DNA from: an uncultured Candidatus Saccharibacteria bacterium
Lineage (GTDB): Bacteria > Patescibacteriota > CALEFQ01 > G965231055
Assembly: GCA_965231055.1 (NCBI GenBank)
Contig: OZ246411.1
Span: 473,875-537,874 of the forward strand
Length of the DNA stretch: 64,000 bases
Direction: 5' to 3'
Part shown: piece after piece, positions 7,308 through 60,045 of the stretch
How the letters are laid out: the number at the start of each line of letters is the position of its first letter
Numbering within the stretch: position 1 is the stretch's first letter
Program-made: the position numbers and the translations under genes
Notes under the pieces: generated by a model
Told to the model about the DNA's origin: nothing
What the model saw: the letters and a program-made list of their open reading frames with translations, nothing else
Database searches by the model: none

Positions 7308-7390
7308 GGCGTAATTAGTTAAAAATAATCTCTTCTAATAAAATCCCCCTCTAGTTTATCACAAAGCGGGGGATTTAAAAATTGGAGTTG

Positions 7391-7654
7391 TTATTTCTTG
7401 GTTTTTGTAGCTTTTTTCTTGGCAGGAGCTTTCTTTTCGGCCTTCATCTTGGTTGCTTTTTCCATTCTTGCCTTGAATTTGTCTACTCTTCTTGCAGTAT
7501 CAACTAGCTTGCTTTTACCAGTATAAAAAGGATGGCAAGATGAACAAATTTCAACTTGGATTTCTTTTTTGGTTGAACCTGTGGTAAATGTATTTCCGCA
7601 AGCGCAAGTGACCTTGGCGTCAGTGTAAAATTGTGGGTGTATTTTCTTTTTCAT
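7391..7654 (-). CDS. rpmE: 50S ribosomal protein bL31
   Basis: [10 protein letters not shown]...[11 protein letters not shown]: a classic L31 with a zinc-binding Cys pair and a Lys-rich tail. Confidence 0.9.
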
Positions 7655-8009
7655 GAAATAAGTATTAAACGTTGGATTGTAAGCGATTCTCGATTAAGAT
7701 TTTTGAAAAACTTACTTGCCTAAATTATCACCAATTTTGTGTTGTGTCAAATGGGGGACGGCATTCAGTTGTCAGTGGTCAGAGTTCAGTTAATAATAAA
7801 GCTGAGATGCGATTGCTGATTGCTGAATACCGACTACTGAAAGCTATGGCTAGGCCTTGCCAAGCTCATTTTTTATGGTATACTTCTGCTAACACCCAAT
7901 AGGTGTAATTTTTTACTTAAATAATCACTCACATACCAAATAGTTTCCTGTCCCTCGCCAAAGTTGGCGATAGGGATAACTGGTATGGATGTGAAAGGAA
8001 CTAAACAAC

Positions 8010-11288: not shown

Positions 11289-11407
11289 TGAAGTTAGGTT
11301 TTAGGTTCTAGGTCATGACTTCTTAAACAATGCAGTATTAAAACTTATAACCTCACACCTAAAACCTACCATCTAACACCTAGCACCTATAACCTAACAC
11401 CTCGTAA

Positions 11408-11483: not shown

Positions 11484-11585
11484 CTGATTAGCTTTTAGGT
11501 TATAGGTTTTAGGTCGCGACTTCTTAAAAAACGCTTGGTGCTAAAACCTAAAACCTGACATCTAAAATCTAATACCTAGTAATTA

Positions 11586-11662: not shown

Positions 11663-11764
11663 CATAACTAGGTTTCAGGTGATAGGTTCTAGGGATCAGA
11701 AGAACTAGGAATTGGCGATTTCTTCTAATCCACCCAATTTATTAATTATTAATTGATATATATT

Positions 11765-11935
11765 ATGAGCAAGAGCAAAGAAAATCTAGTAGTTCTGAAA
11801 TGCACAAAGTGTAATGAAGAAAATTACCACACTTTTAAAAATCGCAAGCTTCATCAGGACAAACTTGAGTTAAACAAGTATTGTTCCAAGTGCAAGATTC
11901 ATACTCCTCACAAGGAGATTAAGAAAAAAGGATAA
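11765..11935 (+). CDS. rpmG: 50S ribosomal protein bL33
   Basis: MSKSKENLVVLKCTKCNEENYHTFKNRKLHQDKLELNKYCSKCKIHTPHKE: a four-Cys zinc-ribbon L33. The tracked ORF is trimmed to the ATG at 11765. The gene is embedded in the tRNA cluster. Confidence 0.88.
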   Translation: MSKSKENLVVLKCTKCNEENYHTFKNRKLHQDKLELNKYCSKCKIHTPHKEIKKKG

Positions 11936-12135: not shown

Positions 12136-12225
12136 GGAGAGGTGGCAGAGTGGTCGATCGCGCTGGTTTTGAAAACCAGTGTCCACTTTTGTGGACCGGG
12201 GGTTCGAATCCCTCCCTCTCCGCCA
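12136..12225 (+). tRNA. tRNA-Ser (anticodon TGA), with a long variable arm
   Basis: Acceptor GGAGAGG/CCTCTCC, anticodon loop TTTGAAA, long variable arm (GTCCACTTTTGTGGACC), T-arm GGTTCGAATCC, CCA encoded. Confidence 0.85.
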
Positions 12226-12245
12226 GCAATATGATGCGGTAAATT

Positions 12246-12310
12246 TGGGTTCGAACTTGCTTGCGCAAGCAAGTCCCACCCCTGCCTACCGGAAGGCAGG
12301 CTCTCCGCCA
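12246..12310 (+). repeat. Degenerate duplicate of the tRNA-Ser 3' end (GGGTTCGAA...CTCTCCGCCA). It carries the 18-bp palindrome CTTGCTTGCGCAAGCAAG (12256-12273) inside the T-loop, plus a second hairpin insert.
   Basis: Direct comparison with the tRNA-Ser 3' end at 12199-12225. The same palindrome recurs at 49563-49580 and 59663-59680. Confidence 0.7.
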
Positions 12311-35862: not shown

Positions 35863-36076
35863 ATTTTGTATATTGACTAACGTGCTTAGTATTGATAATG
35901 TTTCATTCTGTTAGTCCCGCCGCTGCGGGATCCCGCAACGGCGGGATGTTCGATATTCAGTATTCAATGTTCATTATGCTATAAGATTAAAACAAAACGT
36001 TGAGCTACGAAAATTTATTGATTGAAGCTCATATCTGAGCACTGAACACTGAAAACTGACTGCTGACACCTAATAA

Positions 36077-48789: not shown

Positions 48790-49497
48790 GTGCCTTGTGT
48801 AGTTATGGAAATAATTGAGGCAATAAAAATTAGTATTGTATGGATGAGTAATCATGCTTCTTATTTGAGCATTTTTACTTTTCTTTTCGTATTGTTTGGA
48901 TTTTTAGGGATTAGATCTGTTAATGATTTTAAGAAAAAATTTAGAATAAGTAATGCTGGGGCTTTTGATTTGAGCTTCAGTGATAGGTCGATTGATTTTC
49001 ACTTCTCTTTTAGTATTGAAAATAGAAGCAACACCAATATTTTTTTAAAAAGCCCATGCTTAAATATTGAAAGTCCTACTTATTTAAACAAAATCAAGGG
49101 GGAGCCCACATATGTCATTGTCGGATTGCGGGAAATCGATGGTGGATGGAACCTACCTGCTAAATCTGGGTTGAGAGATGTTGTGGTTAAATGCGTAAAT
49201 GTTAGTAGTGTTCGCGGGGATGTTGCTCCAAGTAGCTTTGATGAATTTTTGATTTGGCTGCAAGAGTGCTTTGATGACCATGGTAATTTACCACTAAAAG
49301 TTTTTGTTGAATTTAAGTCCGGCAAGAAATTGTATAAAACCAAGACACTGAAGATTTCAATCAAACAAGCTATATTAAATAGGATAAATAAGGAAAGAAG
49401 TGAAATAAAAGAAGACAATCCCAACAAAAGTGTAATAGAATCAAAAGATAATATTATTAATAAGCTTGAGGAATTTCTAAGAAAAAACTTTTCTTAA
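48790..49497 (+). CDS. Hypothetical protein with an N-terminal TM segment
   Basis: 235-aa ORF; the start is uncertain (alternative ATG at 48844). No recognisable motif. Confidence 0.4.
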   Translation: MPCVVMEIIEAIKISIVWMSNHASYLSIFTFLFVLFGFLGIRSVNDFKKKFRISNAGAFDLSFSDRSIDFHFSFSIENRSNTNIFLKSPCLNIESPTYLNKIKGEPTYVIVGLREIDGGWNLPAKSGLRDVVVKCVNVSSVRGDVAPSSFDEFLIWLQECFDDHGNLPLKVFVEFKSGKKLYKTKTLKISIKQAILNRINKERSEIKEDNPNKSVIESKDNIINKLEEFLRKNFS

Positions 49498-49828
49498 ATC
49501 TTGAGGTCATCCTAATCCTGAGCGTAGCGAAGGGGAATCTTATCTCTCGTCGTCATCCCCGACTTGCTTGCGCAAGCAAGCTTGATCGGGGATCCAGACG
49601 TCGTCACGAAGTGCTTCGCAGAATTACTTTTCGTAACCGAAAAGTAATCAAAAGTTTTCGGGGTGTTCAAGGTCGCTAGTTGCAAAGATATAACACTTCA
49701 TGATTTTCAGAAGGACGCTCCAACAAGCGAACACCCCCGAACCCCCAATTGATACATGAAATAGTGCGTACTTTATTCTTGAGATATGCAATCAAAAAAG
49801 ACCCGTGAGGGCCTTTTTTGGTTGAAAG

Positions 49829-50155
49829 TTAGTAATCTTTCTTCTGGCTTCTGAAACAATCTCTGCAGTAAATTGGCTTTTGTCCATCTGGTTCGAAAGG
49901 AAGTTCTGTGATTTCCTTTCCGCATCCGGAACAAGTCCAGTTACCTTGAAACATTTGTCTCTGTCTTCTTTCTCCGCCGAATCCGCCGCCTCTGCGATCA
50001 TCTCGATCGCCGCGCTTCTTCTGGTGGCAAGCTTTGCAGAATACTGGTCTGTCGCCGCTTGGTTCGAAAGGAAGCTCAGTGATTTGGGCACCGCACTCTG
50101 AGCATGTCCAACTTCCTTGGAACATTTGGCGGTCGCCTCTTGATTGATTGTCCAT
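49829..50155 (-). CDS. Tandem-duplicated CxxC...CxxC zinc-ribbon protein with Arg/Gly/Asp-rich linkers
   Basis: Two near-identical modules: MFQGSWTCSECGAQITELPFEPSGDRPVFCKACHQKK and MFQGNWTCSGCGKEITELPFEPDGQKPIYCRDCFRSQKK. Confidence 0.65.
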   Translation of the reverse strand: MDNQSRGDRQMFQGSWTCSECGAQITELPFEPSGDRPVFCKACHQKKRGDRDDRRGGGFGGERRQRQMFQGNWTCSGCGKEITELPFEPDGQKPIYCRDCFRSQKKDY

Positions 50156-50414
50156 TTTTAATAGACTTTCTGTTTTGATCTAGTCTAACTAACAACTTAT
50201 CGTAAGATATTTGATTTTAAACTAAACAAAACTTAATTAAATTAACTGTGCGTAGTGTACTGCATAATAGCTTTTTTGTCAAATATACGGAGTTTTCAGC
50301 ACTCAGTATTCAGTTTTTAAAGACCCAAAGACTGATGCATATAGTGAATACTGAAAACTGATTGCTGAGTGCCTAGTGCTGACAACTAGGTGTTGATTTG
50401 ATATACTTTTACCT

Positions 50415-57567: not shown

Positions 57568-57727
57568 TCAAGGTCCAGCGATCAGTATTTAGTTTTCAAC
57601 TGATTAATCTTGTCACCATTCGTTATTGATCGGTACTTCATCTTTCATTATTTTGCAGATGAAACTGAACGCTGAATACCGACTACTGAAACCTTATTGT
57701 GCTTATCACTTAAAGCTTATTGCTTAG

Positions 57728-59453: not shown

Positions 59454-59526
59454 ACTTGAAAAGTTTTTATTGTTGTGTATAATGGGGCAGTCTTGGCTAT
59501 CCAAGACTATTTTATATGTGTTATGC

Positions 59527-59602
59527 GGGTGCATAGCTCAGCCGGTAGAGCAGCTCCCTTTTAAGGAGAAGGTCGGGGGTCCGAATCCCTCTGCACCCAC
59601 CA
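59527..59602 (+). tRNA. tRNA-Lys (anticodon TTT)
   Basis: Acceptor GGGTGCA/TGCACCC, anticodon loop CTTTTAA, T-arm GGGGGTCCGAATCCCTC, CCA encoded. Confidence 0.75.
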
Positions 59603-59653
59603 AAATAGAAAAGCTTGTTTAAAATTCAGAAGCAAAGGACTAAGTATCAAGCG

Positions 59654-59697
59654 TGGTCCGAACTTGCTTGCGCAAGCAAGTCCCTCTGCACCCACCA
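59654..59697 (+). repeat. Duplicate of the tRNA-Lys 3' end (GGTCCGAA...TCCCTCTGCACCCACCA), with the 18-bp palindrome CTTGCTTGCGCAAGCAAG (59663-59680) inserted in the T-loop
   Basis: Direct comparison with 59574-59602. It lies 52 nt downstream of the intact tRNA. Confidence 0.75.
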
Positions 59698-59857
59698 CTA
59701 CTAGATATTAGGTTTTAGTGATTAGAGGAATTAGAGGTTTTAGATCTTACGAATTTGATTCAAAATAAAATATCTGAAACAAGAGCTAAGACATCTAATA
59801 CTTCTAGATCTTCTAACACCTGAAACCTATAACCTAACACCTAGCGCCACCTCGTAA

Positions 59858-59934: not shown

Positions 59935-60045
59935 ACGAAGTAATAAGCTTTGAACTATCTATTATAAAACAGCTGTTAGGCTGTTTTTTTGTTATCCAAA
60001 ACCCAATTTTGTGTTATTATAATTGAATACATTCTATAAAAAATA

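Follow-up and report, generated by a model that had tools for sequence, protein, structure and literature searches.

What is a perfect GC-rich palindrome doing inside broken copies of tRNA genes? The question is raised by a stretch of 64,000 nucleotides (the window, always meant at its full length) from an uncultured Candidatus Saccharibacteria bacterium, contig OZ246411.1, in which an 18-bp palindrome that we call PAL occurs three times, two of them within a second, partial copy of a neighbouring tRNA gene. The explanation that we favour, with a probability of roughly 55%, is that PAL is a tiny selfish palindromic insertion, carried by remnants of tRNA genes that are dispensable and that a nuclease or recombinase left behind. 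The three copies are the following.

12256..12273, no strand assigned: PAL copy 1, CTTGCTTGCGCAAGCAAG, between the A and the T of the TTCGAAT T-loop box
49563..49580, no strand assigned: PAL copy 2, in the loop of a GC-rich hairpin repeat
59663..59680, no strand assigned: PAL copy 3, at a T-loop position identical to that of copy 1

All three copies are perfect, as the first-pass annotation of the window had reported, and have the design (CTTG)2-CG-(CAAG)2, in which two 9-nt arms abut with zero internal sequence. PAL is the longest perfect palindrome in the window (the runner-up has 14 bp), flanking A and T lengthen it to 20 bp at two of the three copies, and a scan of the 64-kb window found no further copies at up to three mismatches. 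A Logan assembly, made independently from the same organism, also holds the tRNA-Ser fragment together with PAL, in a contig that begins exactly at GTTCGAA followed by PAL. Because only 0.01 copies are expected by chance, three were reached in none of 100 shuffles and the same junction recurs in the Logan assembly, we regard the observation as real and non-random.

Nine tRNAs were identified in the window by ARAGORN and Rfam, and only for two of these, tRNA-Ser and tRNA-Lys, is there a second copy of the last 10 nt; in both cases a direct repeat of the tRNA 3' segment, from the T-arm to the 3' end, lies downstream of the intact gene. The parts of the two loci are listed in order.

12136..12225, + strand: intact tRNA-Ser(UGA), parent of the first fragment (ARAGORN; Rfam tRNA, 54.4 bits)
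12226..12246, + strand: 21-nt spacer from tRNA-Ser to its 3' fragment, read from the sequence
12247..12255, + strand: Ser fragment to the left of PAL, GGGTTCGAA, covering the T-stem 5' strand and most of the T-loop and identical to tRNA-Ser positions 65-73
12274..12280, + strand: middle of the Ser fragment, TCCCACC, with a single mismatch against TCCCTCC in the parent
12281..12300, no strand assigned: degenerate copy of a second palindrome, PAL2 (described below), CCTGCCTACCGGAAGGCAGG, in the acceptor 3' strand of the Ser fragment, giving a 7-bp hairpin on folding
12301..12310, + strand: end of the Ser fragment, CTCTCCGCCA, with acceptor 3' strand, discriminator and CCA
59527..59602, + strand: intact tRNA-Lys(UUU), parent of the second fragment (ARAGORN, Rfam)
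59603..59654, + strand: 52-nt spacer from tRNA-Lys to its 3' fragment
59655..59662, + strand: Lys fragment to the left of PAL, GGTCCGAA, matching tRNA-Lys positions 51-58 at every base
59681..59697, + strand: Lys fragment to the right of PAL, TCCCTCTGCACCCACCA, reaching to CCA, with 25/25 identity over the fragment

After deletion of PAL, and of the 20-nt hairpin in the Ser copy, the Ser fragment aligned with the last 26 nt of tRNA-Ser at 25 of 26 positions and the Lys fragment with the last 25 nt of tRNA-Lys at all 25, homology stopping exactly at CCA in both. On this base-by-base comparison with their parents the two pieces are true partial duplicates of the adjacent genes, in agreement with the earlier description, which had also correctly placed PAL within the T-loop of both copies (the T-loop box GGTTCGAATCC is split as GGTYCGAA/PAL/TCCC) and a second hairpin insert in the Ser copy. 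The spacers between the tRNAs and the fragments show no similarity to each other or to any retrieved locus, and the folding z-scores of the two fragments are -1.75 and -0.83. Since a strong promoter-like site (TTGAAA-16-TATAAT, 59456-59483) precedes tRNA-Lys and a terminator-like hairpin (59966-59987) follows tRNA-Ala, the PAL-bearing Lys fragment is probably transcribed inside a two-tRNA operon, tRNA-Lys/tRNA-Ala.

The remaining copy lies, as had likewise been noted, inside a larger GC-rich inverted repeat.

49552..49595, no strand assigned: GC-rich hairpin repeat GTCATCCCCGA-PAL-CTTGATCGGGGATCC, hosting PAL copy 2 in a convergent intergenic region

Here the loop of GTCATCCCCGA...TCGGGGATCC is occupied by PAL; the fold of 49498-49640 has a z-score of -2.2, and in Rfam searches, where only the nine tRNAs of the window reached threshold, the region 49400-49900 gave nothing credible even at E <= 1. 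A PAL-free version of this hairpin, GTCATCCCCGACCTGATCGGGGATCC, is present in two other loci (L086 and L123; L numbers denote loci retrieved from genome, metagenome and protein-homologue searches). A dispersed GC-rich hairpin of the form GTCATYCCCG...CGGGRATCC carries PAL in its loop, and exact pairs of filled and empty versions exist: besides the window repeat and L086/L123, there are GTCATCCCCGTGAA-PAL-GACGGGGATCC in L010 and GTCATCCCCGTGAAGACGGGGATCC in L101. Thus, in hairpin repeats as in tRNA duplicates, PAL behaves as a short, GC-rich, dispersed palindrome that is sporadically present at otherwise homologous sites. A gene for a duplicated treble-clef zinc-finger protein (PF23477, E = 8e-28; 49829-50155, minus strand) is convergent on the intergenic region of copy 2.

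To what extent is PAL a property of this genome? The genome and metagenome scans, which retrieved exact matches only, returned 51 stretches from genomes and 109 from metagenomes, and the 975 kb of DNA retrieved hold 167 perfect copies in 111 distinct flank contexts. Approximately 40 of the 51 genome matches are of Candidate Phyla Radiation (CPR) type, a number that includes low-GC bins labelled otherwise that have CPR-type contexts, as are 90 of the 109 metagenome matches (those below 45% GC). Among the genome lineages are Roizmanbacteria, Woesebacteria, Saccharibacteria, Paceibacterota and unnamed Patescibacteria bins. Given that about nine chance matches are estimated for the 596-Gb genome collection, singletons outside the CPR are roughly at chance level, and CPR genomes as a group are strongly enriched in PAL. 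GC-rich matches outside the CPR (Dormiibacterota, Acidobacteriota and similar) were set aside as chance or as an unrelated operator, and the single match in a viral contig, also GC-rich, as unrelated. In the Dormiibacterota contigs (L019, L033, L047, L090, L113 and L149) the 18-mer is the core of a longer palindrome, TGGAATA-PAL-TATTCCA, located 5' of a yceI-like gene followed by a MarR-family regulator, which is probably an operator unrelated to the CPR element.

The borders of the unit are sharp. Palindromy extends into the flanks no more than by chance, and degenerate copies are scarce in the retrieved DNA, with 1, 5 and 8 found at one, two and three mismatches, respectively. A direct repeat of at least 4 nt flanks none of 74 low-GC sites, matches of 2-3 nt being at chance level, and no target motif was found around PAL, the flank logo lacking any conserved tetranucleotide. 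PAL is a discrete unit of 18 bp, sharply conserved and concentrated in the CPR, and sequences that are otherwise identical may have it or lack it.

Its proximity to tRNA genes extends beyond the window: of the 167 copies, 34 are no more than 400 nt away from one, when about 4% would be expected for a 1-Mb genome with approximately 45 tRNAs. In about 20 tRNA fragments, deletion of PAL leaves flanks that are 100% identical to the adjacent intact tRNA, PAL being an exact 18-bp addition, and in L038 its removal restores a full ARAGORN call for tRNA-Thr. These fragments have two geometries: 5' fragments, spanning positions 1 to 16-22, lie upstream of the intact gene and carry PAL in the D-loop, and 3' fragments, ending at position 76/77 (CCA), lie downstream of it and carry PAL in the T-arm. 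The insertion points, which are G53/T54 (L012, L038), A59/T60 (the window), three D-arm positions and 6/7 (L166), differ between fragments, and so the T-loop is no specific target.

PAL is also found within AT-rich arrays of period 7 and within genes. In approximately 21 of the 74 low-GC contexts it lies in frame in an open reading frame (ORF), where its 18 bp make six codons, free of stop codons in every frame, that add the peptide LLAQAS, LACASK or ACLRKQ. Comparison with solved homologues places an insertion of exactly six residues at the PAL peptide in FolC and one of eight residues in RecR; the transketolase insertion is ambiguous and RecG has no extra length at PAL. Two lineages have PAL in their 23S rRNA, where it aligns with a native hairpin of 7 bp that directly follows the GGGAAACC motif near position 130.

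Some of these loci have further peculiarities. In the window, the inter-tRNA spacers at 11290-11403, 11487-11578, 11663-11700 and 59698-59850 consist of period-7 repeats of TTAGGTT type followed by their complement, of AACCTAA type, which together make long imperfect AT-rich hairpins; similar arrays elsewhere (L059, L084, L117) hold PAL inside or at the tip. In L061 (4098-4604; also L020, L055, L057, L073 and L115) PAL encodes the C-terminal LACASKK of a sigma factor of the extracytoplasmic function (ECF) type, with 8 nt left between the end of PAL and the start codon of the ORF that follows, an arrangement conserved in several diverged contigs. In the CPR 23S rRNA genes of L032 (2602-6414; also L044, L075 and L122), PAL makes up the hairpin that follows GGGAAACC; compared with the Rfam model, the two helices beyond it contain inserts of 110 nt and 92 nt.

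The first-pass annotation had proposed a small mobile element, possibly a MITE, or miniature inverted-repeat transposable element, with T-loop targeting. The discrete small insertion survives from this proposal, because PAL amounts to exactly 18 extra bases relative to the tRNA parents, divides hairpin repeats into filled and empty forms and adds six codons in frame to proteins. A classical MITE finds no support, PAL being without target-site duplication and without internal sequence, and neither does T-loop targeting, as PAL occupies D-loops, two different T-loop positions, hairpin tips, AT-rich arrays, ORFs and 23S rRNA with no motif in common.

PAL has a sister. The hairpin CCTGCCTACCGGAAGGCAGG in the Ser fragment differs by two substitutions from the consensus CCTGCCTGCCGGCAGGCAGG, named PAL2, a 20-bp perfect palindrome, (CCTG)2-CCGG-(CAGG)2, of the same design as PAL. 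PAL2 or close variants of it occur in at least 10 PAL-bearing loci, arms of tRNA fragments included: it is in the T-arm of a tRNA-Leu 3' fragment in L031, L058 and L068, and a 16-nt version is in the D-loop of a tRNA-Phe 5' fragment in L036. Judged by this shared design, PAL and PAL2 belong to a single family, whose members are perfect palindromes, GC-rich and very small, that consist of tetranucleotide repeats. Members may nest or multiply, as in L163, where PAL encloses a variant 18-mer at its centre (~745-780), and in L112, where five tandem variant 18-mers (CTTGCCTGCGCAAGTAGG, sense strand; 7382-7471) stand beside PAL in the leader of an ORF of the GIY-YIG nuclease family. Repeat-number variants of PAL also exist, with (CTTG)3-4 and (CAAG)3-6, some of them asymmetric; L087 and L138 are among the loci that have such variants. 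Other variants, such as CTTGCCTGCGCAAGCAGG and CTCGCCTGCGCGAGCAGG, keep two shifted registers of a 5-bp stem with a tetraloop and not the full palindrome; several such 18-mers were found where one was expected by chance, and we treat them as a lead only because few source genomes contribute them. L087 itself (1560-1860 and 2380-2420), a 95-kb contig of 35.7% GC that is possibly organelle-like, has (CTTG)4CG(CAAG)2 upstream of tRNA-Met and tRNA-Leu and GCGC(AAGC)6 downstream of tRNA-Met, both repeat-number variants of PAL.

Does anything travel with PAL? ORF clustering around PAL, in which ORFs were not individually scanned against Pfam, returned GIY-YIG as the recurrent small gene and no cluster of Y1 transposases, and no transposase or integrase family recurs within 2 kb of PAL. 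The GIY-YIG gene belongs to a cassette found at many tRNA-Leu genes, in the order tRNA-Leu positions 1-19, PAL, tRNA-Leu positions 20 to ~29 (which sometimes supply the ATG), an ORF of about 80 aa that is a GIY-YIG catalytic domain (Pfam PF01541, E = 5e-16), and the intact tRNA-Leu gene. Six independent cassettes with the GIY-YIG ORF were found via PAL. For a test independent of PAL, GIY-YIG homologues were searched by protein (14 found) and five contexts were retrieved by protein identity alone; in all five a PAL-family 18-mer lies in a tRNA-Leu 5' fragment immediately upstream. Exact PAL is inserted at GGYG/RAAT in L164, L165 and L169, L163 has PAL with the nested insert, and in L166-168 a PAL variant is at position 6/7 in two successive tRNA-Leu fragments. 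PAL is thus the constant companion of one GIY-YIG cassette in related genomes. The arrangement recurs in a Saccharibacteria chromosome (L036, OZ246404; 5643-6016) with other parts: a tRNA-Phe 5' fragment (positions 1-37) has the PAL2-type insert CCTGCCTGCCGGCAGG in its D-loop and is followed by a GIY-YIG ORF of another subfamily and then by intact tRNA-Phe.

Other genes near PAL were discarded as partners: for LAGLIDADG ORFs and those of the four-helix bundle ("23S IVS protein"), a single family of loci accounts for essentially all of the signal, and DnaK and a P-type ATPase at other loci are unrelated coincidences. Around intact tRNA-Leu, L060 (700-1010, minus strand), L039 (7760-8000) and L048 (4000-4210) are mosaics of tRNA-Leu 5' fragments and a 3' duplicate, with a recurring junction motif, GGCAKAC/CTGCCCGCCAGTGCC, and its complement flanking the intact gene, which suggests, from the arrangement of the pieces, repeated rearrangement at tRNA-Leu position ~26. 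Several Logan contigs (L052, 1-60, and the 3' ends of L163-L165 and L169) break exactly at PAL, at the tRNA box or at the tRNA start after the GIY-YIG cassette.

A GIY-YIG enzyme that acts on tRNA genes is already known from phages, where the cleavage site of SegB within tRNA genes, RAWTSGAAC, is the T-loop box GTTCSAWTY read as its reverse complement, and repair of the break leads to tandem duplication of tRNA-containing segments (PMC13096335). In the explanation that we favour, PAL and PAL2 would be selfish additions of 18-20 bp in CPR genomes, made without target duplication or target motif and kept wherever they are tolerated: in the loops of hairpin repeats, in variable rRNA helices, in surface loops of proteins and, above all, in non-functional partial tRNA copies. 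The 3' fragments of the window would be dispensable local duplicates of the segment from T-arm to CCA, probably arising from double-strand-break repair or recombination at the T-loop box. Insertions in an essential single-copy tRNA would be lethal and purged, and for this reason the fragments, which retain them, may accumulate PAL and, in the Ser case, also PAL2. It is reasonable to suppose that the GIY-YIG family makes the breaks, mobilizes the palindromes or does both, and the fragments have the geometry to be expected if a tRNA-arm copy interrupted by PAL underwent break repair, or one crossover, on its "safe" side.

Several points weigh against this explanation. GIY-YIG enzymes hydrolyse DNA and do not ligate it, which leaves the movement of the 18-mer unexplained. 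The window itself has no GIY-YIG gene (phmmer, six-frame translation), no other nuclease or recombinase among the ORFs scanned, and no tRNA-Leu gene, and the 3'-fragment type is without an ORF in 4 of 4 examples (the two of the window, L012 and L038). No close relative was found: apart from one record that is 100% identical, the matches to the window DnaJ, all from Patescibacteria/CPR, are at most 56-57% identical, and look-ups of exact proteins gave a single Logan contig. The PAL junction is in a hairpin loop at 23% of sites and at 19% of controls, the median flank-pairing rank is 0.53, and 24% of sites are in the most stable decile; general targeting of hairpin loops was rejected on these grounds (flank-pairing p = 0.13), as only about a quarter of the sites cap very stable stems. 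Lastly, PAL is a native helix in two 23S rRNA lineages, and it is perfect at orthologous sites whose flanks are 66-86% identical, an estimate biased by the exact-match scans; both may point to selection for a host function and not to selfish spread.

A bolder version, which we consider doubtful but with a real chance of being correct, would make PAL, PAL2 and their variants the smallest mobile DNA so far known from bacteria, 18-20 bp long, spread in trans or made at breaks by the ~80-aa GIY-YIG nuclease, a bare catalytic domain, of a self-restoring tRNA-Leu cassette; throughout the CPR, nuclease and palindromes together would reshape the loci of tRNAs, the helices of rRNA and the loops of proteins.

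Could PAL instead serve the host? Selection might keep it perfect as the site where a conserved CPR protein binds as a dimer, or as a hairpin for processing or stabilizing RNA, with the tRNA-like flanks as a functional operon spacer. We judge this rather unlikely. The perfection of PAL amid diverged flanks (78-86% identity in the sigma-factor group, 66-76% in L056/L116) is what such a role would give, as are its frequent location 8-30 nt before start codons and its invariable presence in the 5' leader of the GIY-YIG ORF. PAL is transcribed as a 23S rRNA helix in two lineages, in the window it lies inside the probable tRNA-Lys/tRNA-Ala transcript, its variants preserve two stem-tetraloop registers with the GNRA loops GCAA, GCGA and GUAA among them, and the Dormiibacterota 18-mer is the core of a longer operator-like palindrome before a yceI-marR operon. 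However, a regulatory site would not arise as an exact six-codon insert in FolC or RecR, and the exact 18-bp additions in the arm loops of pseudo-tRNAs and in dispersed hairpin loops are left unexplained. Nor has PAL a fixed position relative to genes, as it is found in ORFs and in convergent, divergent and tandem intergenic regions. The fragments fold unremarkably, and near-perfect variants are rare whereas binding sites normally tolerate degeneracy. An intrinsic terminator is not what PAL encodes, since it is followed by TCCC... or CTTGAT... without a U-tract, and no copy was called in the terminator scan.

The window fragments may have had another origin. According to this proposal they are attR-type remnants of elements that a tyrosine integrase inserted at the T-loop and of which later deletion spared almost nothing else, PAL being either part of the former attP or itself the recombination site. 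Integrases that target the T-loop reportedly use, as described by Williams in 2002, an identity block from the T-stem 5' strand to CCA, which is the span of the fragments, and the 5' side of their T-stem is degenerate, as an attP-derived arm would be; a circle made of the T-arm 5' half, PAL and the 3' end, recombining 3' of PAL, would give the observed order of tRNA, spacer and PAL-bearing fragment. We nevertheless find the proposal improbable, given that there is no integrase gene among the window ORFs scanned and no island, the gap between tRNA and fragment is just 21 and 52 nt, and no integrase family recurs among the ORFs within 2 kb of PAL. The 18-mer is also present where att sites are unexpected (D-loops of upstream 5' fragments, ORFs, rRNA), and its arms lack the spacer of tyrosine-recombinase core sites. 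Site-specific integration is a possible origin of the tRNA fragments, but one that leaves PAL itself unexplained.

Just as improbable, in our view, is that PAL is made de novo as a scar of repair, when a short tail ...CTTGCTTGCGC is added to both 3' ends of a double-strand break and the tails anneal via GCGC, or via CCGG in the case of PAL2. The geometry fits, PAL having 7+4+7 nt around GCGC and PAL2 8+4+8 nt around CCGG, PAL has neither target duplication nor target motif, it has variants in repeat number, (CTTG)3-4 and (CAAG)3-6 with some asymmetric cases, and it is enriched where nuclease cuts are expected, at the tRNA boxes adjoining GIY-YIG genes. However, we know of no enzyme that would extend bacterial breaks by a defined tail of tetranucleotide repeats, and neither a reverse transcriptase nor a template RNA came to light. 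Swapped-unit variants, CTTG-CCTG ... CAAG-CAGG, demand extra assumptions, and the scheme is purely inferential. Chance or an assembly artefact, for which one can cite only the general caveat that the source is a metagenome-assembled genome, is practically dismissed by the expected 0.01 copies, the same junction in the independent Logan assembly and the recurrence of an identical 18-mer, in biological contexts that agree with one another, in over 100 contigs that many different projects and assemblers produced.

Is the selfish insertion that we prefer without precedent? Short mobile GC-rich palindromes in reduced AT-rich genomes are already known. Yin et al. are said to have described, in 1981, 18-nt "PstI palindromes" flanking tRNA genes in Neurospora mitochondria. 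In yeast mitochondria the GC clusters GC42 and GC18 are palindromic and have direct flanking AG/ACT repeats resembling target duplications (PMC4478555). PAL resembles the fungal mitochondrial GC clusters in being a short, GC-rich, conserved palindrome dispersed in an AT-rich reduced genome, beside tRNA genes, in intergenic regions and inside genes, in the merging and nesting of units, and in that mobility is deduced from a sporadic distribution. Unlike the organellar clusters, it belongs to CPR bacteria, lacks target-like flanking repeats, is a perfect 18-mer of tetranucleotide repeats and is tied to the GIY-YIG/tRNA-Leu cassette.

Among bacteria, heterocystous cyanobacteria reportedly have small dispersed repeats (SDR; Elhai and colleagues, 2008) of ~21-27 nt that form hairpins, look mobile without a known transposase and nest within each other as well as within other repeats; the genomes concerned are likewise said to be rich in heptamer tandem repeats. 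In comparison with these, PAL is in another phylum, has another sequence, is shorter and perfectly palindromic, occurs within ORFs without disturbing the frame and has a nuclease gene as its associate. The Rickettsia palindromic elements (RPE), reportedly described by Ogata et al. in 2000, are said to be ~100-150 bp long, degenerate and confined to Rickettsia, whereas PAL has 18 bp and is nearly invariant across several CPR lineages. Repetitive extragenic palindromes and their paired forms (REP/REPIN) are imperfect palindromes of 20-40 nt whose head is GTAG or CGTC; they are intergenic, reach high copy numbers and go together with an HUH-Y1 transposase, RAYT (PMC3116915, PMC3733652). A short palindrome accompanying a nuclease-type gene is common to both systems, RAYT being flanked by its repeats and PAL being next to GIY-YIG, but PAL is perfect, lacks the GTAG/CGTC head, has a low copy number, is also intragenic and is linked to a hydrolytic enzyme. 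The SegB system of phage T4/T6 tRNA clusters is similar in having a GIY-YIG gene among tRNA genes, and its T-loop-box cleavage and its duplication of tRNA segments by break repair may have parallels here; SegB, unlike the CPR proteins, is a larger phage enzyme with a DNA-binding domain, and no palindromic insert has been reported for it (PMC13096335). The CPR proteins have the ~80-aa catalytic domain only, are chromosomal, and have an activity that is predicted from their sequence.

Literature searches found the PAL sequence in no paper of the library searched and nothing relevant on palindromic repeats of the CPR, and the family of very small CPR insertion sequences that PAL represents is apparently undescribed so far. 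What is new is the CPR-wide occurrence, the minimal size and near-invariance, the sister element PAL2 and the GIY-YIG/tRNA-Leu cassette. CPR/Patescibacteria genomes are tiny and thought to be poor in repeats and mobile DNA; if the selfish reading is true, ultra-small selfish DNA shapes them through tRNA remnants, rRNA and proteins and is tied to a minimal GIY-YIG cassette. PAL would then offer a manageable system in which to ask how repeats can move that are shorter than the ends of all known transposons, a question that applies equally to the mitochondrial GC clusters and the cyanobacterial small dispersed repeats. In practical terms, repeats of the PAL family break short-read assemblies exactly at tRNA loci, and PAL adds spurious peptides such as LLAQAS and LACASK to predicted proteins.

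The remainder of the window, whose GC content is ~37.5%, contains housekeeping genes, including rpsB, tsf, prfA, rpmE, isp genes, lexA, mraZ, hrcA-grpE-dnaK, dnaJ and others. A small ORF for ribosomal protein L33 (rpmG-like, CxxC...CxxC; 11766-11933) lies in the tRNA array between tRNA-Thr(GGU) and tRNA-Trp. A second heptamer repeat, CTGAnnn, is present at 7816-7845, 36028-36071, 50345-50387 and 57665-57694, directly 5' of rpsB, tRNA-Glu, ORF 50415 and dnaJ, respectively, and may be a leader or promoter-proximal element. Also 5' of tRNA-Glu, at 35915-35946, there is a GC-rich double hairpin, TCCCGCCGCTGCGGGATCCCGCAACGGCGGGA, a further small GC-rich palindromic element in an AT-rich spacer.

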